Shown one piece after another: positions 1 to 24,000 of a stretch of DNA of 24,000 bases. The notes under the pieces are model-generated. The model did not search any database. It was not told the DNA's origin and saw only the letters and a list, made by a program, of their open reading frames with translations. Origin of the DNA: Methanobacterium sp. (GTDB taxonomy: Archaea; Methanobacteriota; Methanobacteria; Methanobacteriales; Methanobacteriaceae); contig NZ_JBNAKN010000005.1 in NCBI RefSeq assembly GCF_049723875.1, positions 15,112-39,111 of the forward strand, given 5' to 3'. Position 1 is the stretch's first letter. Every line of letters begins with the position of its first letter. The position numbers and the translations under genes are program-made.

Positions 1-1003
1 ATCTTGCATAAACAGATCTTGCAATATTAGGATCGTTAGTTCCTTTAATTATTGCTCTTCCATCTCGAAATACAGATATTTCATATTTTTCTGTCTTAAA
101 AAGCAAAATAAAATCGGCGCATTTAATGCTGCCTAAGTGTTCCAGGTTAGATGCAAGCTCTCTTAAATCCATATCTTTTGGATCTGCAGGAGTTATTTGA
201 ATTGCATTTCGACCGCAAAGAGAGGTAATAATTTCTCTATCTTCTGAGTTCAGATATTCATATTCTTCAAGGGAACAGCAGTTACATTCATCATTTTTTC
301 TGACGAGTATTTCATCCATTGAATGATTCCATGCATCATAAACTATAAGACGCCCATCCTGTTCATTTTCTGGCCTTGCTTCACCAAGAAGTATTCTTAT
401 AGCTTCTGTACTTGCCATCGATCCCATAATCACGGTTATGGTATTTAATACACCCATTGTATCACATGTTGGGAGCGAACCTGGTTTTGGAATATGTGGG
501 TAAAGACATCGAATACATGCAGCACCAGGTAAGATATTCATTGTCATTCCTGATGTTCCGATTGCACCAGTGTATATCCATGGAATTTCTTCTCGAACAC
601 ACACATCGTTTATGAGCATTCTTGTTAGGATGTTATCTGTCCCATCAAGAACTAAATCAACGTCTTTTATGATTTCTTCCACGTTAGTATGGTTTAAATC
701 TTTTACAATAGGTTCAACTTCAATAGCAGAGTTAATGAGTTTAAGTTTTTTGGTTGCAGCAACCGCTTTTGGTTCTCCAACATCAGTTTCATCAAATAAT
801 ACCTGTCTTTGTAAATTATTTAATTCAACAAAATCTCTATCTAAAATGGATATTTTACCAATTCCAGCACGTGCAAGATTATTTGCGGCGGCTGTTCCAA
901 GAGCTCCACATCCTACAATAAGAACATGGCTTTCTGAAAGTCTTTTTTGACCTTCTTCCCCAATGTTCTGTAATATTTCCTGTCGTGAGTATCTATTTTC
1001 CAT
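1..1003 (-). CDS. ThiF/MoeB/HesA-family E1-like adenylyltransferase (partial; 3' end runs off the left edge)
   Basis: My own minus-strand translation from the ATG at 1003..1001 reads MENRYSRQEILQNIGEEGQKRLSESHVLIVGCGALGTAAANNLARAGIGKISILDRDFVELNNLQRQ... and stays open to position 1. It has the RYSRQ motif, a GxGxxG Rossmann motif and a Cys cluster (CIRC...PTCD) typical of the family. A GGTGA sits 7 nt upstream of the ATG. It is missing from the ORF track because no stop lies inside the window; track ORF 570..950(+) is its antisense shadow. Confidence 0.8.
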   Translation of the reverse strand, partial: MENRYSRQEILQNIGEEGQKRLSESHVLIVGCGALGTAAANNLARAGIGKISILDRDFVELNNLQRQVLFDETDVGEPKAVAATKKLKLINSAIEVEPIVKDLNHTNVEEIIKDVDLVLDGTDNILTRMLINDVCVREEIPWIYTGAIGTSGMTMNILPGAACIRCLYPHIPKPGSLPTCDTMGVLNTITVIMGSMASTEAIRILLGEARPENEQDGRLIVYDAWNHSMDEILVRKNDECNCCSLEEYEYLNSEDREIITSLCGRNAIQITPADPKDMDLRELASNLEHLGSIKCADFILLFKTEKYEISVFRDGRAIIKGTNDPNIARSVYAR

Positions 1004-1145
1004 ATTTCAATCACCTGAAGTTTTGGGTCAATCCCTGTAAAAATTGAAAATATTTACGGTTGCGAAGCTCTGCTTCGTAAACATCAAAAATCTTCGATTT
1101 TTGATAGGATTGTCTGGAGTATCTATTTTCCATGTTATATTCACC
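981..1145. repeat. Hairpin array A1 flanked by an imperfect 35-nt direct repeat that duplicates the ThiF-like start codon region
   Basis: Direct repeats at 981..1015 and 1111..1145 match at 29/35 positions, with a 17-nt exact core gagtatctattttccat that includes the start codon. Between them are the stem-loops tgcgaagc-tct-gcttcgta (1061..1079) and atcaaaaatc-ttc-gatttttgat (1083..1105, 10-bp perfect stem). Confidence 0.85.
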
Positions 1146-1186
1146 AGATATGTAAGTTACTATATAAAATTTAATAAAAACAAAAA

Positions 1187-5815: not shown

Positions 5816-6430
5816 TTAATTACTTAATTGCTGTTCTATATATTTTTTAGCATCTTCTAAATTTCCCTGCCTTAGATATTCCTGTATGTTTTTATCATTT
5901 AAAATTTTATATAAATAATCTCTACGTTTTTTTTGATCATTCATATTTTCTTTTAAAATGTTTCGTGTGAAATTCTGGAGTTCTAACTGTAAAACATCTT
6001 CTTCAAGTATCACTTTTTGTATTCTTTTTCTTAACTCTTTTGCCATAAGAGGGCTTTTTCCACCAGTAAATATACAAAATTGCACATCCCCTATAGAAAA
6101 AGAAGAAGGAATAATTAAATTACCTTCATCTGGCTGATCGGCCCGATTTAAAAGCTTTCCTTTGGCTAATTTTGCCACGCGCTCATTTAATTCATGATCT
6201 CCAGTAGATATTACCACAAGATCAGACCAATTAATCCATTTTTCAACTTCATCTAAAGGTTTGAAAGTAGCTCCAAGATCAATTAGATCATTTAAAATTT
6301 CTTTATTTATAATAGTAACATTGGCCCCTGATTCAAGGAATCTTCGGGCTCTTCGAGTTCCAACCTCTCCTGCACCAACAATTAAAACATTTTTGTTTTC
6401 CATTTGCAGGAAAAGAGGTGTCCAACCCAT
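5816..6430 (-). CDS. sirC: Precorrin-2 dehydrogenase / sirohydrochlorin ferrochelatase (CysG N-terminal-domain type)
   Basis: The N-terminus is typical of the family: [41 protein letters not shown]. It is about 200 aa and sits immediately upstream of hemA in the same orientation. Confidence 0.8.
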
Positions 6431-6706
6431 ATTTAGATCTCCGATTCATAATTGAAATTTAGTTGACTTAACCTTTTCCCTAAAAGATTAATATTGTCGA
6501 AAGTTATGGACTTTCTGACCTGAAAAATCAGTGATTTTTCAGGGGTTTTTTGATCAAGCCTTTTTTCTCTGAAAAAAGCCCTTGAAAATCTACGATTTTC
6601 GGGGCGCCAAAAATTCAAAGAATTTTTGAGCGGTTGATGCTGTAGAGATGTCCAACCCATATTTAGATCTCCAATTCATAATTAAAATTTAATTGGCTTA
6701 ACCTTT
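6414..6706. repeat. Hairpin array A2 flanked by a 63-nt direct repeat that duplicates the sirC start codon and leader
   Basis: Direct repeats 6414..6476 and 6644..6706 match at 58/63 positions, and all 5 mismatches are G/A transitions. Stem-loops lie between them: cctgaaaaatca-g-tgatttttcagg (6519..6543), cttttttc-tct-gaaaaaag (6560..6578), gaaaatc-tac-gattttc (6584..6600) and caaaaattc-aaa-gaatttttg (6608..6628). Confidence 0.9.
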
Positions 6707-8996: not shown

Positions 8997-9707
8997 TTAT
9001 ACTTGAGACAAGTCAAAAGGAACGCTTCCTTTTAATGTAGCTCTTGCTATTGATATCCCATCTGCACCAGCAGAAAGCATATCACGTGCAGATTTAAGAT
9101 CATGAATAGAATTATTACCTATTAAAAATATTTCAGTGTTTTCTTTAATTGTCCTTATAATGTTGTAATCTGCATGGTTATATCCTGGTTTCATGGCATC
9201 TACATGCAAATAATCAGCACCTGCTTTTTCAATAGCTTTTGAAACTTCAATATCATTTACATTTCGAACATTTGCTCTGATCTTAACTGATACTTTACTT
9301 TCAGCTCTTTTTACCACATTTTTTGTAAAATTATATAATTTTTTGGTATCATAAAGAAGTGCCTGTCCACAGCCAATATCAGTTATTTCAGGTTGTCTGC
9401 AGTGTGCATTTATTTCCACTACATCAATTTCATGTAGTTTCGATACTTCAACAATAGGTTCAAATGAAACTGAACGTAGGTTAACAGATACAGTTCCCTT
9501 CCAGGAAGTTTTAAGTATATTTGCTTCTTTTTTAATAGATGATAACAAATTTTCTTCATCTATATCAAATTCTTGTCTTCCTCTTTGAATAATACTGCAT
9601 CCCGCTTCCATTGTAGGTTTATCTGCGTTATAGCCGCCAAGGGTTACCATGTCAAAACCATAAGGAGCCAATTTTAAGCAAAAATTTCCATCGGTTATTC
9701 CTGCCAT
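8997..9707 (-). CDS. Dus/NifR3-related TIM-barrel flavoprotein (archaeal type)
   Basis: MAGITDGNFC matches the PMAG(V/I)TD motif of dihydrouridine-synthase-like TIM barrels. It sits next to GTP cyclohydrolase III. The conserved-looking residues IAGEFIEVLAP continue in frame upstream of the ATG with no ATG/GTG/TTG, so the true start is uncertain. Confidence 0.6.
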   Translation of the reverse strand: MAGITDGNFCLKLAPYGFDMVTLGGYNADKPTMEAGCSIIQRGRQEFDIDEENLLSSIKKEANILKTSWKGTVSVNLRSVSFEPIVEVSKLHEIDVVEINAHCRQPEITDIGCGQALLYDTKKLYNFTKNVVKRAESKVSVKIRANVRNVNDIEVSKAIEKAGADYLHVDAMKPGYNHADYNIIRTIKENTEIFLIGNNSIHDLKSARDMLSAGADGISIARATLKGSVPFDLSQV

Positions 9708-9780: not shown

Positions 9781-10548
9781 TTAATCCACTAATTTTTCAT
9801 TCATAACATGGACAAGATCGTAGGTGACTCCACCTCTTATCTCTTCCAGAGCTAGATCTGCCAAATTAGCAGCTTTTTCAGCCGTAGGTGCTTTTCCAAT
9901 ACCTGCTTTAAGCGCTATATTGGTTTCATCTTCAATTTCTTCAACTATTTTTAAGAGTCCTTCAGGGCTAAGTCCATTACATGGAGACATAAAATTATCT
10001 CCCCCTATAAAGAAGACAAGTGAACCTTTTTCAATTAACTTTTTCATTAAGAAATGTTGAACTCTATTTACAATAAAAGAAGTATCATAAGCCGGGATTA
10101 TATCAGTTAAAGAATCTGTAATTCCATTTATATCTATATGGGCAATTTGAACAAAACTGTCATCTTTATTTACAAGACCATCTATAGCCAGAACTTCTTT
10201 TCGCTCTTCAGATTGTGCTCCACCATAATTTTGAAGAGCTGCTGTAGCATCTCTTTGAGCTTCATAAGGAGTTTCAGCTGCTCCAACACCCATACTTATG
10301 GTTATTGGATATCTATTGCCTATTGATTTCTGGATTCTCAAATGATCCTCCACATCTACATTATTAGTAATTGCAAGCATGTTATCAAAGCGGGTGAAGA
10401 AAACAAGTCCACCTTTAGCAGCAAATTGTCTTTGAATATCAGCATAAAGCTCTGCTTGCAGGATTTGAAGATCTGCTTCAGCCCTTGGAGTCGGAGTAAC
10501 AGTCCATGGGCCGTAATTATCAATTTGAATTAAAGTCATCTGTATCAT
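9781..10548 (-). CDS. gch3: GTP cyclohydrolase III
   Basis: The N-terminus [22 protein letters not shown] is the hallmark of the archaeal GCH III family (MJ0145 type). It is about 255 aa. Its ATG overlaps the cofD stop as ATGA (10548..10545), which suggests translational coupling. Confidence 0.85.
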
Positions 10549-11450
10549 AAAATTTCACCCAAAATAATTCTGGCTAACCTCACTTTATCATTGATGGTCT
10601 TCATGTTTGTGTTTGTTATAACGACCTTTGATATTAGTTTTTCTATTTTTTTCTCAGATTCTATGTCCTCAACATCTATGATAAACTTGTCCATAAATTC
10701 CTTATAAATTGTTGCAACACCTTCACACGATACTTCGTATCCCATTGCATTCATAAACTTTGCTGCGGGACCACTTACAGGATTTCCACCTATTATTGGA
10801 GATACTGCAACAACATAAGAGTTTTTAAGAGCTTTTCTTACTCCATTCATTGAGATTATTGGCCCTATGGATGTTATCGGATTAGATGGCCCTATTATGA
10901 CCATATCTGAATCTTCAATAGTACTTATTACATCATCTGAAGGTTCAACATCTGCATATATTATATCTTCCACTTCAGGCTGTGCCTTTTTTCCAACCAG
11001 AAATTCGTGGAAGCTCATTTCCCCTTCATCTGTTATAATCTTGATATTAGATTGCTCATCACTCATAGGAATGATCTTTGATTTAACACCTAATTTTTTT
11101 CTTTGAATATCTACGACTTCAGAAAGAGGATACTTCTCCATTAGCATAGTCTTTTGTATCTTAATGGCGCGATCTTCATCCCCAATTCTTAAAATCTCAT
11201 TATAACCCATTTCTTTTAAAGTTTCATGGGTTGTAAATGTATCTTTGTCAATACCGTACCATGTGTTTTCATTTATAATTCCTGCGAGAGTATACATCAC
11301 AGTATCTATATCTGGTGCTATATAGTTTCCTGATATATATGTATTTTCTACTGTGTTTACAATTATATTGAGATCTTCGGGATCGGTTGTCTGGACTATC
11401 CCCTGAATTAATTTTGGAGTTCCAGTTCCTCCAGAAAGTATTGTTATCAT
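10545..11450 (-). CDS. cofD: 2-phospho-L-lactate transferase (F420 biosynthesis)
   Basis: It has the characteristic CofD N-terminus [18 protein letters not shown], is about 300 aa, and neighbours cofE. Confidence 0.9.
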
Positions 11451-11708
11451 ATAGCTCGTTTTTAAAGTTTGTTTTGTAGTTAATGATTTTAATGAAGATT
11501 AAAGCATACACGTTTTATTTATAGTTAAATACTCACTATTTTTTGGATCATATTAATCTTTTGAAAATCACAGCCCACAGGTTTTTAGGATTTGATGCTT
11601 TAATTCATGCTATTCAAAACAGTGTTTTTAAGAGTTTCAGTTTCATTAGTGAGTATTTATCCATATAACCTGTCTTTAAAGTTTGTTTGTATTAACGTTT
11701 TTATGATG
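11448..11708. repeat. Element A3: imperfect ~47-nt direct repeat duplicating the cofD start codon and leader, enclosing a ~165-nt insert
   Basis: 11448..11495 (catatagctcgtttttaaagtttgttttgtagttaatgattttaatga) and 11662..11708 (catataacctgtctttaaagtttgtttgtattaacgtttttatgatg) are roughly 80% identical with small indels and share a 14-nt exact core, tttaaagtttgttt. The insert has a 12-bp inverted repeat aaatactcacta (11527..11538) / tagtgagtattt (11647..11658) and weaker A/T-tract hairpins such as caaaac-agt-gttttt. Confidence 0.7.
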
Positions 11709-17686: not shown

Positions 17687-17720
17687 AAAATTTTGAATAT
17701 AAAAAAATTTTGAATATAAA
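17687..17720. repeat. Perfect tandem duplication of a 17-mer (AAAATTTTGAATATAAA x2) overlapping a 16-bp palindrome
   Basis: 17687..17703 equals 17704..17720. The first copy is embedded in the perfect palindrome attcaaaattttgaat (17683..17698). It lies about 120 nt upstream of the psd start. Confidence 0.85.
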
Positions 17721-21815: not shown

Positions 21816-22550
21816 ATGAAGTTATCAACACTTTTTATCATAGCAGGGATGGTAATCATCTCCCTTTATTTTATGGTAGAAGTAAGTTTCTATGCAACAA
21901 CAGAGAATGTTGTTCTAAATAAATCAGATACTCCTTTTCTTGAAATACCCAAAATAAGTGTTGATCAAAATATCAACAACAAATCCGTAAATTACGGAGT
22001 GTATTATGAACCCGAATCTGCAAAACCCGGTTATGGAACTGTGGTACTAGCAGGACACAGAACATTTTACAGTTCTCCTTTCTTAAATCTAGATAAACTA
22101 AAAACTGGAGATAATATAACTGTATCATGGCCAGAAATAGGAAATGTCCAGTACACAGTAGTAAGATCATATATTGTTCCTGCATCATACCAGCTATCTT
22201 TAGATCAGGGCAAAACTCTTATTCTGTATACATGTTATCCTCTGGGATCATCCAAAGAAAGATTAATTATACAGGCAAATCAAACTAAAATAACCCCATT
22301 TGCCTATTCAAAAGCAGCAAATTCGAATAACGGGAAAAAAGATTTCCCATATGCTCCGTTATTAATAGCTGCCTTTTTAGGAATAGGTTTAGTCTTAAGC
22401 TATTTATATCCTGTAAAAGATGATAAAATATTTATTTTCATAACTGCAGTTGCCCTCACACTGTTTTTATTATATGGGTACCTGTTTCCAGTTCCAGGAG
22501 ATCAAATATCATCACAGATATCCAATTTGAGCGATATATTTGGAGGTTGA
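21816..22550 (+). CDS. Sortase-family cysteine transpeptidase, membrane anchored (N-terminal TM plus two C-terminal TMs)
   Basis: LEIPKISVDQNI...PGYGTVVLAGHRTF supplies the His, TLILYTCYP supplies the TLxTC-type Cys, and ERLIIQA supplies the Arg, completing the sortase H-C-R triad in canonical order. The TM segments are FIIAGMVIISLYFMV, LLIAAFLGIGLVLSYLY and IFIFITAVALTLFLLYGYLF. Confidence 0.8.
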   Translation: MKLSTLFIIAGMVIISLYFMVEVSFYATTENVVLNKSDTPFLEIPKISVDQNINNKSVNYGVYYEPESAKPGYGTVVLAGHRTFYSSPFLNLDKLKTGDNITVSWPEIGNVQYTVVRSYIVPASYQLSLDQGKTLILYTCYPLGSSKERLIIQANQTKITPFAYSKAANSNNGKKDFPYAPLLIAAFLGIGLVLSYLYPVKDDKIFIFITAVALTLFLLYGYLFPVPGDQISSQISNLSDIFGG

Positions 22551-22551
22551 A

Positions 22552-22597
22552 GAAAATCTCTTCGAGATTTTCGAAACCCCAAAAACTTTGTTTTTGG
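22552..22597. repeat. Hairpin array A6 (two modules) immediately after the sortase stop
   Basis: The two modules are gaaaatctc-ttc-gagattttc (22552..22572, 9-bp perfect stem) and ccaaaaac-ttt-gtttttgg (22579..22597, 8-bp perfect stem). Confidence 0.8.
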
Positions 22598-22667
22598 AGG
22601 TTAAATCCAATATATACGCCAAATTTTATAATCAGTACCACCCAAATATAAAACCAGGTAGATTTTA

Positions 22668-23039
22668 ATGGATGTCGAAGATAAATATTTCAAAAATATT
22701 TCAAGCAGAGAACGAGCAATTTTTGAAGGTGCAATTACAATGGGCGCTTTATTCCATCAGTTTATTGGAACACCTGTAAATTCAGAAAGTGCAGAAATGC
22801 TTGAAAAATCAATAAAAAGAGCAATGGAACTTCAACCATGCATTGAAAAAGTCGAAGTGAAAATAGACAGGAAAATGCTTGAAGAAGCTAAAAGTGAATT
22901 TGATTATGTATCTCTAAACGGAGATATGATAGATGTAAGAGTAGTTTCAACATATAATAACAAAAAAGCGGTTTTAAGGATGGAATATATCAAAGAGTTA
23001 AAGTATCCTTTGATGTATGTGGAATATATTGATGAATAA
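22668..23039 (+). CDS. mptD: Probable archaeal dihydroneopterin aldolase (MptD-like, methanopterin biosynthesis)
   Basis: It is about 120 aa, with ERAIFEGAITMGALFHQFIGTPV near the N-terminus. From memory this matches the conserved ERAIFE-G-x-LGAL-HQF-GTP block of the MJ0408/MptD family. I did not verify this by search. Confidence 0.5.
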   Translation: MDVEDKYFKNISSRERAIFEGAITMGALFHQFIGTPVNSESAEMLEKSIKRAMELQPCIEKVEVKIDRKMLEEAKSEFDYVSLNGDMIDVRVVSTYNNKKAVLRMEYIKELKYPLMYVEYIDE

Positions 23040-23438
23040 TTAATAAATTACAGAATGTTTTTGATCCTATCAAACCTTCGGTTTGATTGTTTACGAAATT
23101 ACATTTCGTAACCGGAAAAATTGGAAATTTTTCCATGCCCAAAAATCAGAGATTTTCGACAGCTATTGAAAATCTTGATTTTCAATGCCGCAAAACTACG
23201 TTTCGCCGGCTTTTTTATAAAAAGCCAGCAAAATTTATAATTTTGTGGTGTGCAAAAATTATAAATTTTTGCAGTTACGAAACGCGGTTTAGTAAACGTT
23301 AAAAATCTATGATTTTTAACATCCTGCAAAATCAAGTGTTTTGCGGCCCACAAAATCCTTGATTTTGTTGGGGCTGTTGAGGAGTTAAAGTATCTTTGAT
23401 GTATGTTAAAAATATTGATGAGTAAACAAATTACAGAA
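22995..23438. repeat. Hairpin array A7: 13 consecutive stem-loops flanked by a ~60-nt imperfect direct repeat that duplicates the 3' end and stop codon of the MptD-like gene
   Basis: Direct repeats: 22995..23055 (gagttaaagtatcctttgatgtatgtggaatatattgatgaataattaataaattacagaa) and 23382..23438 (gagttaaagtatc-tttgatgtatgttaaaaatattgatgagtaa---acaaattacagaa). The stem-loops span 23069..23368. Perfect 9-10 bp examples are at 23091..23111, 23114..23134, 23165..23186, 23251..23273 and 23298..23320. Confidence 0.9.
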
Positions 23439-23470
23439 AAATTACTGTAATTACTTTTTGTGGTGACTTC

Positions 23471-23788
23471 ATGGATAGTTTAAAATTATATGATGACTTG
23501 AAATTTGCTATAAGATGTGTAGACATCTGGGAAAAGTTAAAATCAACTGATGCTGAGATGGAAGAAGTTCTTAAGCATGAAGCAAATAAAAAAAGTCTAG
23601 ATCAAAGCGCCCTATTTTGCCAGCCTTTGCAAGATTATTTAGAGATGCTAATCGCCATGATTCACAATGAGAGCGGAGAATGGTTTTTTTATGTGGATAT
23701 TGCAGGTGTTTTATACGATTTTGTTTCAACAGATGAACTTTCAGTATATAAAACTGAATCAGGTTATTGTGTCTGTTTCAAAAAATAA
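23471..23788 (+). CDS. Small acidic hypothetical protein
   Basis: A 105-codon ORF with coding-like composition and no TM or signal peptide. I recognise no motif. Confidence 0.4.
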   Translation: MDSLKLYDDLKFAIRCVDIWEKLKSTDAEMEEVLKHEANKKSLDQSALFCQPLQDYLEMLIAMIHNESGEWFFYVDIAGVLYDFVSTDELSVYKTESGYCVCFKK

Positions 23789-23884
23789 GAATTAATGGCA
23801 TAATTTATGATACATTTATTTTTATATAACTACTAACACATATTTATTTAAGATTATCTATTTAATAATCAAGCTATTAAAACT

Positions 23885-23927
23885 GTCAAAGCTGAAAGTT
23901 TTGACGCAGCAAACACCAAGTGTTTGC
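23885..23927. repeat. Hairpin array A8 (two modules)
   Basis: The two modules are gtcaaagc-tgaaa-gttttgac (23885..23906, one G-T position) and gcaaacac-caa-gtgtttgc (23909..23927, 8-bp perfect stem). Confidence 0.65.
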
Positions 23928-23963: not shown

Positions 23964-24000
23964 ATGATAAAAGTTAATAAAGAACTATGTAAAGGGTGCA
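23964..24000 (+). CDS. Start of a probable 4Fe-4S ferredoxin-domain protein (partial; runs off the right edge)
   Basis: ATG at 23964 gives MIKVNKELCKGC..., the common N-terminus of 4Fe-4S dicluster proteins (start of a CxxCxxC motif). Only 12 codons are visible. Confidence 0.3.
   Translation, partial: MIKVNKELCKGC

Follow-up and report, generated by a model that had tools for sequence, protein, structure and literature searches.

An array of hairpins downstream of mptD in Methanobacterium as a putative overgrown remnant of a small palindromic insertion element

The window studied here is a stretch of 24,000 nt from Methanobacterium sp. (contig NZ_JBNAKN010000005.1, positions 15,112 to 39,111, forward strand), which is AT-rich, with a G+C content of 33%. 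Downstream of an mptD-like gene it contains 13 consecutive hairpins, enclosed between two copies of the end of this gene. The explanation which we prefer, and which we consider somewhat more probable than its opposite, is that this array represents an overgrown remnant: It would go back to a small palindromic insertion element which codes for nothing and which we call the seed. The seed entered the DNA beside the stop codon of mptD, with a target duplication of about 60 nt: The copy joined to the gene stays intact, the other one decays. Modules of about 23 nt have later built up within the seed, flanked by its outer stem halves, and they make up the 13 hairpins.

We have compared the mptD loci of 80 species representatives from GTDB (L001-L080) and of 80 metagenome contigs (L081-L160). 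The closest species-level relatives of the window are Methanobacterium metagenome-assembled genomes (MAGs) and Methanobacterium sp. MBAC-LM, and one window protein has 100% identity with an NCBI protein from "Methanobacterium sp." (P0001). The following features are found at the mptD site of the window:

22668..23039, plus strand: intact mptD-like gene, 123 aa, dihydroneopterin aldolase (Pfam PF04038, E = 3.6e-43), with orthologues in L001-L160.
22995..23055, plus strand: target copy 1, the functional copy; the 45 nt at the end of mptD, with its stop codon, and 16 nt more, into the 5' arm of the native hairpin.
23056..23068, plus strand: left seed half, TGTTTTTGATCCT, to be compared with TTTTTGATCAACC; aligned with the intact seeds of L002, L004, L089 and L021.
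23069..23368, no strand: hairpin array, 13 modules with a period of about 22-28 nt, mostly of the form xxAAAAT(C)-NNN-(G)ATTTTxx.
23069-23087 (8 bp), 23091-23111 (9), 23114-23134 (9), 23165-23186 (10), 23208-23226 (8): perfect-stem hairpins, first part, with loops of 2-3 nt.
23229-23245 (7), 23251-23273 (10), 23298-23320 (10), 23350-23368 (8): perfect-stem hairpins, second part, with loops of 2-3 nt.
About 23139-23159, 23190-23206, 23275-23295, 23326-23344: imperfect hairpins, read from the sequence.
23370..23379, plus strand: right seed half, GGGGCTGTTG, to be compared with GGTTG; it directly abuts copy 2.
23382..23438, plus strand: target copy 2, decayed; a 1-nt deletion breaks the frame; about 88% identity to copy 1 in the coding part.
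23429..23459, plus strand: native hairpin, AATTACAG-loop-CTGTAATT, followed by ACTTTTT; the original spacer between mptD and the next gene.
23471..23788, plus strand: downstream gene, 105 aa, no Pfam family, intact in the window.

A previous reading of this DNA from its letters alone (the sequence-only reading) had described 13 back-to-back hairpins 3' of the mptD-like gene, and they are indeed present, nine with perfect and four with imperfect stems. Between positions 23056 and 23381, nine hairpins have perfect stems of 7 bp or more, while 1000 dinucleotide-preserving shuffles of this region contain 0.38 such hairpins on average and 3 at most. The RNA fold of 23040-23470 has an energy of -126.9 kcal/mol, compared with -82.6 +/- 6.0 in shuffled sequences (z = -7.3). 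The array is neither a product of chance nor ordinary DNA. Two of its arms, 23082-23156 and 23230-23304, are 72% complementary, which suggests palindromy on a larger scale, although this cannot be separated from the skeleton common to all modules.

The flanking direct repeats, with 61 and 57 nt, align with a local score of 62 (z = 15.9 against shuffled flanks), in agreement with the same reading. It had also taken the left copy for the true 3' end of the gene and the right copy for a decayed duplicate with a broken frame. The match to PF04038 confirms the first of these claims, and the absence of one C in the right copy confirms the second. The right copy also has an indel past the stop codon and a few substitutions. 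The complete set of differences between the copies is a C deletion, GG to TA, T to A, A to G and an indel. Weak homology extends about 5-9 nt to the left of the repeat (TTGAG before GAGTTAAAG). On the other side, the duplication ends just beyond the 5' arm of the native hairpin, at 23055 in copy 1 and at 23438 in copy 2. A homologous native hairpin is found directly 3' of the stop codon in L001, which has no array. A diversity-generating retroelement was considered and rejected, since the differences between copies are not confined to template adenines. The window proteins that were scanned include no reverse transcriptase.

Empty sites, with a single copy of the segment and no array, had been named by the sequence-only reading as something to look for in related genomes. 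They are found in L001 (87% MptD protein identity), L081/L082 (84%) and L005/L083 (78%), and also in L086 and most other loci. Filled sites are found in the window, L003, L004, L084, L089, L021 and L002, which has three copies of the gene end. Minimal alleles are found in L089, in L021 and in the first unit of L002. In L089, a 45-nt gene end appears twice (44/45 identical) around ATTTTGATCAACCTTTTTCTAAAAGGTTGTTGAT, and in L021 a 38-nt gene end appears twice (38/38 identical) around TTTTGATCAACCTTTTAAAAAGGTTG. Copies 1 and 2 of L002 are separated by TTTTTATCAACCTTTTTTCTAAAAAGGTTG. In these three cases (L089, L021 and the first unit of L002) the insert is a tailed hairpin of 26-34 nt. These alleles indicate that the block of about 325 nt is not one insertion, but a small one which has grown from within. 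The sequence-only reading had suggested an insertion of that size with a long target duplication. The insertion and its long duplication are supported by the empty alleles, while the size has to be given up, since minimal alleles contain about 31 nt. Its other suggestion, a duplication whose interior was replaced by hairpin modules, comes closer to the truth, except that the interior is a specific dispersed element and not an arbitrary sequence. That reading had also named what would speak against it, namely the lack of empty alleles and of similar arrays elsewhere. Empty alleles exist, and bracketed arrays are found elsewhere in the window.

With its sequence TTTTTGATCAACC-TTTTTT-CTA-AAAAA-GGTTG, the seed is a tailed hairpin of about 31 nt. 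In single-stranded form it consists of an 8-nt T-rich 5' tail and a 10-bp hairpin (-8.2 kcal/mol, z = -4.5). Both of its halves in the window lie outside all 13 hairpins. Since the seed halves flank the array, the array grew later, inside the original small insert. A similar split is found in L004, with the left end TTTTTGATCAACC, the right part CCGGCTTTTTTCTAAAAAGGTTG and two further hairpins between them. The module 23208-23226 (GGCTTTTT-TAT-AAAAAGCC; GGCTTTTTTATAAAAAGCC) is a probable remnant of the T-first core hairpin of the seed.

According to their alignment and to scans of related loci, the seeds form one dispersed family. Among about 2.17 Mb of scanned loci and the window, intact seeds are restricted to relatives with at least about 71% MptD identity. 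Across these relatives they occupy five distinct sites within about 30 kb of chromosome. An intact seed with no obvious duplication is also found beside the stop codon of another gene in L005/L083, L001 and L003. The TTTTTGATCAA terminal motif (up to 2 mismatches) is not enriched across the window, with 32 occurrences found and 39 expected, and it matters only as part of the seed. A phage or plasmid origin was considered, and BLAST gave no match. Five viral contigs from IMG/VR (L166-L170) match a relaxed seed pattern exactly; these are probably chance matches.

The history of the mptD site is complex. Derived changes are common to right copies of different genomes: The third copy of L002 shares them with the second copy of L003, and the second copy of the window with that of L004. 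These copy-specific changes are common to several genomes, therefore the mptD duplication predates these species. In a neighbour-joining tree of mptD (370 nt, weakly resolved), the empty genomes L001 and L081 are nested among filled ones, therefore there has been either secondary loss or repeated gain. The third copy of L002 would be the expected product of unequal exchange between repeats. A lineage-specific codon change is present in both gene-end copies of L004, which points to gene conversion. The same tree places L089, L021 and L084 in different lineages, with empty ones scattered among them. Two readings fit the near-perfect duplicates of L089 and L021: repeated entry at one place, or an ancient insertion homogenized by conversion.

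The mptD site is not alone. The same seed, with duplications of 28-63 nt over gene starts or stops, is found at four further sites, and three of these have empty relatives. The orthologous regions for these sister sites (L161-L165) were obtained by means of homologues of precorrin-2 dehydrogenase. Those located in the window, together with a sister array, are the following:

981..1148, no strand: sister element at a ThiF-like gene; repeats 981-1018 and 1111-1148, 38 nt, 82%.
6414..6706, no strand: sister element at the precorrin-2 dehydrogenase gene; repeats 6414-6476 and 6644-6706, 63 nt, 92%.
11448..11688, no strand: sister element at cofD, older and decayed; repeats 11448-11474 and 11662-11688, 27 nt, 85%.
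22539..22605, no strand: sister array of two hairpins (22552-22597) after a sortase-like gene.

At the ThiF site, the repeats cover the ribosome binding site (RBS) and the first 8 codons of the gene (start at 1003, minus strand). The insert contains the seed halves 1020-1035, AGTTTTGGGTCAATCC, and 1104-1110, AGGATTG, with three hairpins between them. The site is empty in L165 and L164, has only the seed in L161, three modules in the window and about ten in L162. The seed-like hairpin of L161, which begins with ATCCTTTAGAAAAGGATTGACC, is the reverse complement of GGTCAATCC-TTTT-CTA-AAGGAT. Both in the window and in L162, the modules are always located between ATCC and GGATTGACC. Changes specific to copy 1 and to copy 2 are common to the window and L161, so this duplication is old as well. 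L162 has lineage-specific changes in both copies, which indicates gene conversion.

At the dehydrogenase, the repeats comprise the 5' leader and extend over the first 17 nt of the gene (5816-6430, minus strand). The insert contains an intact seed-like hairpin (6545-6580) and further modules. This site is empty in L161, L164 and L165 and filled in the window and in L162/L163 (63 nt). We also considered that the boundary of the duplication might correspond to a transcript end. This idea was dropped, because the duplicate at 6414/6644 starts about 30 nt past a TATA-like box, with no clean distance to a transcription start site. At the cofD site, the repeats cover the gene start (10545-11450, minus strand), and the site is empty in L164 and filled in L162 and L165. 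Its insert also contains a 12-nt inverted repeat, AAATACTCACTA / TAGTGAGTATTT (11523-11534 and 11647-11658 in the window), and a second one, ATTAAAGCAT / ATGCTTTAAT, which is interleaved with the first and not nested in it.

The fifth site is located to the left of the window. In L161 and L165, an exact seed lies between 28-nt duplicates, which include a stop codon as well as the RBS and codons 1-5 of the gene that follows. Instead of the seed core, L164 and L162 have one or two ordinary modules between AACC and GGTTGATC. The flanks of the sortase array, 22539-22551 and 22593-22605, have only about 10-13 nt of TTTGGAGGTT, stop codon included; this site is empty in L002 and L004, and L003 and L001 have larger arrays.

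The junctions follow the same layout at every site. In the orientation of the seed, the functional copy is followed by 0 to about 70 extra nucleotides, by TTTTTGATCAACC...GGTTG and by the decayed copy. The GGTTG end abuts the duplicate exactly, as in GGTTG|TTGAGGAG, GGTTG|AATTGG, GGATTG|TCTGGAG and GGTTG|GCTTGATT. The T-rich end is ragged: It has a variable number of T, extra nucleotides and partial self-duplications, such as TTTTTGATGGAA...TTTTTGATCAACC or GTTTTATGTCAATCCA-TTTTAGGTCAATCC. The duplications have about 10-13, 27, 28, 36-38, 38-46, 61 and 63 nt, and all the long ones contain a gene terminus. All five seed sites share the same chromosomal orientation, which corresponds to the plus strand of the window.

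Such repeats might be what is left of an integrative element, with attL and attR produced by integrase recombination at the 3' end of mptD and the bulk of the element deleted later. It is true that duplications of 40-60 nt at the 3' end of genes are typical of integrase att sites (PMC2853133) and that the left copy restores the gene. However, the minimal inserts have only 26-46 nt, they are a hairpin and include no part of an integrative element, and at four other sites this structure has duplicated the start of a gene. Moreover, the duplicates match the sequence of the host itself, lineage by lineage, the window contains no integrase and the array has no coding match. We consider this origin very improbable, it is close to refuted.

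The case for a miniature inverted-repeat transposable element (MITE) is better, though we still regard it as rather unlikely. The seed is short, non-coding, has inverted repeats and is present in multiple dispersed copies, as expected of a MITE. It does not show the short target-site duplications of fixed length which are part of the definition. To account for this, a transposase acting in trans would have to make staggered cuts of variable length, the hairpin would represent two adjacent terminal inverted repeats and the flanking repeats would be true target-site duplications. The conserved termini of the seed, dispersed at at least five sites, agree with this idea. So does the presence of near-perfect duplicates at the same mptD position in distant lineages, which suggests sequence recognition. 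There is also a precedent: The insertion sequences (IS) IS1634/IS1549 make direct repeats of 8-514 bp, thus long and variable, as in our case, and their family is preferentially found in Euryarchaeota (PMC2266710). However, these IS have 1.5-2 kb and code for a DDE transposase, and about 2.2 Mb of related loci (which include no whole genome) contain no transposase gene, no long element with the seed termini and no pair of these termini 0.6-4 kb apart around a gene. The seed is also asymmetric, a tail plus a hairpin and not a pair of inverted repeats around a body, with one precise end and another one which is ragged and has partial self-duplications. Finally, many arrays have no duplication, and a MITE leaves the growth of modules of diverse sequence inside the element unexplained.

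The properties of the modules are among the grounds for the overgrown seed which we propose. We have analyzed 93 array modules from the window and L001-L004, and they correspond to 92 distinct sequences. Their stems have 6-11 bp, the period being 20-30 nt in most cases; 72% have a 3-nt loop, and 70% close it with a C-G pair. At positions 3-6, counted from the loop, 69-86% of the modules have an A. The 5' arm has an A-run in 65 modules and a T-run in 7. In the mptD array of the window, the feet and spacers appear by eye to be richer in G+C.

About 10 kb of synteny connect the window with L001-L004, with 83-95% gene identity. Almost every intergenic spacer in this region contains an array in some of these genomes and lacks it in the rest, and few of the modules align. 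At one site, relatives with about 85% sequence identity have from 0 to more than 20 modules. Perfect stems are found in 61 of 76 array modules, next to flanking duplicates which have diverged by 8-18%, therefore the modules are younger than the insertion or have been corrected. Modules can be copied: In L162, a stretch of 31 nt (one mismatch) is common to two arrays 3.2 kb apart, in L003 a 24-nt module recurs within one array, and 6546-6634 of the window has 82% identity with an L003 array from another locus. Paralogous modules of L003 differ symmetrically at the apex, ...AAAATC-GAA-GATTTT... as against ...AAAATTC-TAT-GAATTTT.... Arrays of adjacent perfect hairpins are found in the window and L001-L004, while only 6 of the 76 other GTDB loci have such hairpins, a single adjacent pair each. 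On this sample, large arrays are confined to a narrow subclade of Methanobacterium.

Other types of repeats do not agree with these features. A CRISPR array was rejected: We have found no constant direct repeat alternating with unique spacers, the units being the variable palindromes themselves. Repetitive extragenic palindromes (REP) and the bacterial interspersed mosaic elements (BIME) which they form were also rejected, as there is no consensus palindrome. The 93 modules have 92 different sequences, the median pairwise local score is 6 (identity would give about 25) and Tandem Repeats Finder (TRF) reports no tandem repeat in the arrays. The window contains no gene for a RAYT (Y1 HUH) transposase.

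Some open reading frames (ORFs) of 71-84 aa traverse the arrays: 23087-23302 (plus strand), 23099-23353 (minus) and 6433-6660 (minus). They have no Pfam match, and it is almost certain that they are artefacts of annotation. In the case of ORF 6433-6660, the artefact is due to the start codon of the neighbouring gene, which has been duplicated. The 109-aa ORF called in the corresponding spacer of the P0006 contig is probably of the same sort. The modules in 23229-23273, with AATT inner stems and TAT/ATA loops, give TATA-like sequences such as AAAATTTATAATTTT (23230-23244) and AAAAATTATAAATTTTT. On both strands, these sequences resemble methanogen BRE/TATA elements (the transcription factor B recognition element and the TATA box), and a promoter-like match is listed at 23214-23241. 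With such sequences, arrays could create promoters.

The strong structure of the array (z = -7.3) raises the question of whether it has a selected function. It might be a terminator or insulator with multiple hairpins and T-runs, or an element which stabilizes the RNA of mptD and its neighbour, with stems kept by selection. Oligo-T tracts are the signal for intrinsic termination in archaea, and every module has a run of T4-T5 in its 3' arm, on both strands, the seed having runs of T5-T7. There is also one probable compensatory change, GGC...GCC in the window as against AACC...GGTT in L002, with L004 as an intermediate. Nevertheless, the presence of arrays and the number of modules vary wildly among close relatives, and empty alleles are common. 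Arrays are found in leaders, between promoter and start codon, and in what is probably an operon, and strong termination at such places would do harm. Stem mismatches do not show an excess of G-T over A-C (7 vs 5), so they carry no signature of an RNA strand either way. The search of the whole window against Rfam 15 gave no match at the gathering score, and no tRNA was detected in the array. The three-nucleotide loops with C-G closing pairs of the modules would be expected of stable DNA mini-hairpins rather than of RNA. We consider a selected function improbable.

In the overgrown seed model, the array would probably have no dedicated function, being tolerated in 5' leaders and inside an operon. 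The 105-aa gene was probably co-transcribed with mptD, because in empty alleles it is only about 55 nt away from the mptD stop codon. Arrays cannot be strong terminators, because they are located in 5' leaders and between these two genes. Most simply, they are selfish or neutral, and they may modulate the ends or the stability of transcripts by means of their T-runs and stems, or have side effects through their TATA-like sequences.

How might such a structure arise? New modules start as perfect palindromes with 3-nt loops, and modules are lost, replaced or at times copied from another array. The content of an array therefore differs completely between relatives, while its flanks are fixed. Recombination between the direct repeats could delete the whole insert and regenerate an exact empty site, and gene conversion could homogenize both target copies. 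We infer that insertion and growth may be linked to replication and polar. Such an event seems likelier than a transposase with a fixed stagger because the duplications vary in length and one junction is exact and the other ragged. The partial self-duplications, the single orientation, the lack of a mobility gene in the sampled DNA and the copying of modules between arrays point in the same direction.

Two versions may be envisaged. In the first one, the nascent strand would leave its template past the end of a gene and prime in the T-run of another seed. The seed would be copied until the new hairpin snaps shut at GGTTG and ejects the 3' end, which would then anneal again tens of nucleotides upstream on the original template and copy the same stretch once more. 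In the second one, the 3' end of a free seed hairpin would be ligated to the 5' end of an Okazaki fragment which has been displaced as a long flap. The hairpin would shield the flap from Fen1, and the sequence of the flap would end up being present twice. Both versions predict a continuum of duplications, from none to long ones. In both, the only insertions at gene ends to survive would be those whose duplication spans the start or stop codon, which would explain why all long duplications contain a gene terminus. Arrays might grow by template switching among hairpins through AAAAT/ATTTT microhomology, and new perfect palindromes might arise by fold-back synthesis or by processing of hairpin tips, the least supported step.

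Several points weigh against this explanation. Many arrays have no detectable flanking duplication. The near-perfect duplicates of L089 and L021 are located at almost the same junction in distant lineages, and repeated site-specific insertion there would favour an enzyme which recognizes its target. No enzyme or autonomous partner has been detected in about 2.2 Mb of related sequence, none of it a whole genome. The link with replication would be deduced from the anatomy of junctions at five sites within about 30 kb, therefore their common orientation could be due to chance (with a probability of about 1 in 16). Another possible cause is selection against T-runs in the sense strand upstream of genes. 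Finally, the strains L162 and L163, which are 99.9% identical, show no array difference, and no elementary step has been observed.

Some other observations concern the genes and spacers of these regions. In L006 (10400-10720), a homologue of the 105-aa gene has apparent in-frame stops ('gtctagaaaag', 'aattaaaatc'), so it may be a pseudogene or contain a sequencing error, as it comes from a MAG. A further array of the window (23880-23927) precedes a ferredoxin-like gene, which starts near 23966. It is located after a region with a TATA-like box and has no long flanking duplication. There are no modules in L001 at this place, two in the window, four in L003 (10960-11053) and about eight in L002 (about 11170-11360). 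In L164 (12783-13322), the GMC-oxidoreductase upstream of ThiF has only 179 aa and ends 10 nt before the start of ThiF. Its counterparts in the window, L161, L162 and L165 have 446-460 aa, which points to a deletion in L164. An ABC-ATPase has 563 aa in L161 (1320-3011) and L165 (7636-9327), and 531 aa in L162, L164 and the window. The additional N-terminal part of the longer version overlaps the end of the Dus gene and looks like a miscalled start codon. What looked like a "hairpin cluster" where the Dus gene ends (9015-9033) was discarded as a false positive, since it is conserved coding sequence. At 17687-17720 of the window, upstream of a phosphatidylserine decarboxylase-like gene, there is a perfect tandem duplication of 17 nt, AAAATTTTGAATATAAA, which is a single copy in L001-L004.

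The overgrown seed may be compared with several known systems. Insertion with long target duplication has been defined by genome comparison for restriction-modification genes, with tabulated duplications of 45-49 bp which can overlap the 3' end of genes (PMC2853133). As in that class, we find both empty and filled alleles, repeats of more than 30 bp which are unique to each site and often overlap a gene 3' end, and an insert with no transposase, integrase or other mobility gene. Unlike that class, in which kilobases of genes are inserted and each insert is different, here a single 31-nt hairpin is found at many sites, in an archaeon, with later expansion into hairpin arrays. According to one review, MITEs have been reported as absent from Methanobacterium thermoautotrophicum (PMC10969869).

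REP/BIME and the RAYT-associated REPIN are also short extragenic palindromes arrayed between genes, non-coding, specific to lineages and variable among strains. REP share a consensus and a conserved tetranucleotide, whereas 92 of our 93 modules are different and have only the A-run/T-run skeleton in common, and the insertion of REP does not make a long duplication. Small mobile elements which form hairpins exist in organelles, such as the GC clusters of yeast mitochondria and the double-hairpin elements of Allomyces, and repetitive hairpin-forming elements have reportedly been described in sponge mitochondria. They resemble our arrays as tiny palindromes with feet richer in G+C, proliferating in AT-rich intergenic DNA, at or in gene ends. 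They belong to another domain of life and have other sequences, and we know of no report of target duplications of 30-60 nt or of array growth in situ for them. Template-switch mutations are said to create perfect hairpins in a single step (Loytynoja and Goldman 2017; Monttinen and Loytynoja 2022), and palindromes are reportedly processed by breakage at the centre or at the hairpin tip (Cunningham et al. 2003). Such processes would likewise give perfect inverted repeats with minimal loops without selection, and remodel palindromes from the centre. Unlike template-switch mutations, which are sporadic, our modules are concentrated in the loci of one clade, with a regular size of about 23 nt and a constant A-run/T-run skeleton.

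In the literature searched, which excludes most subscription journals, we have come across neither these Methanobacterium arrays nor the seed, and the family is apparently undescribed. The finding combines two known kinds of events, small palindromic mobile DNA and insertion with long target duplication, and its mechanism is potentially novel. For the study of long target duplications it offers a cargo of only 31 nt, recurrent sites and the coexistence of empty, minimal and expanded alleles, so the rules of the junctions can be read and the process is testable. Perfect hairpins of unrelated sequence which arise and turn over fast also have a bearing on the origin of structured RNA and DNA and of terminator-like hairpins. 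For annotation, it should be taken into account that these arrays yield spurious ORFs and decoy start and stop codons beside real genes. They might contribute to differences in genome size within Methanobacterium, for example between MBAC-LM, a member of the clade with 3.17 Mb, and ACI-7, with 2.24 Mb. A bolder proposal, which we make only tentatively and think more doubtful than the remnant itself, is that in one lineage of Methanobacterium a tailed hairpin is inserted at gene boundaries by a replication-coupled process independent of any transposase, through copying or ligation into the nascent DNA, with duplications of 30-60 nt, and that novel perfect mini-palindromes are created repeatedly at the same place. 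If this were true, these archaea would have an endogenous generator of structured DNA and RNA, which would build and erase intergenic hairpin arrays on short evolutionary timescales.

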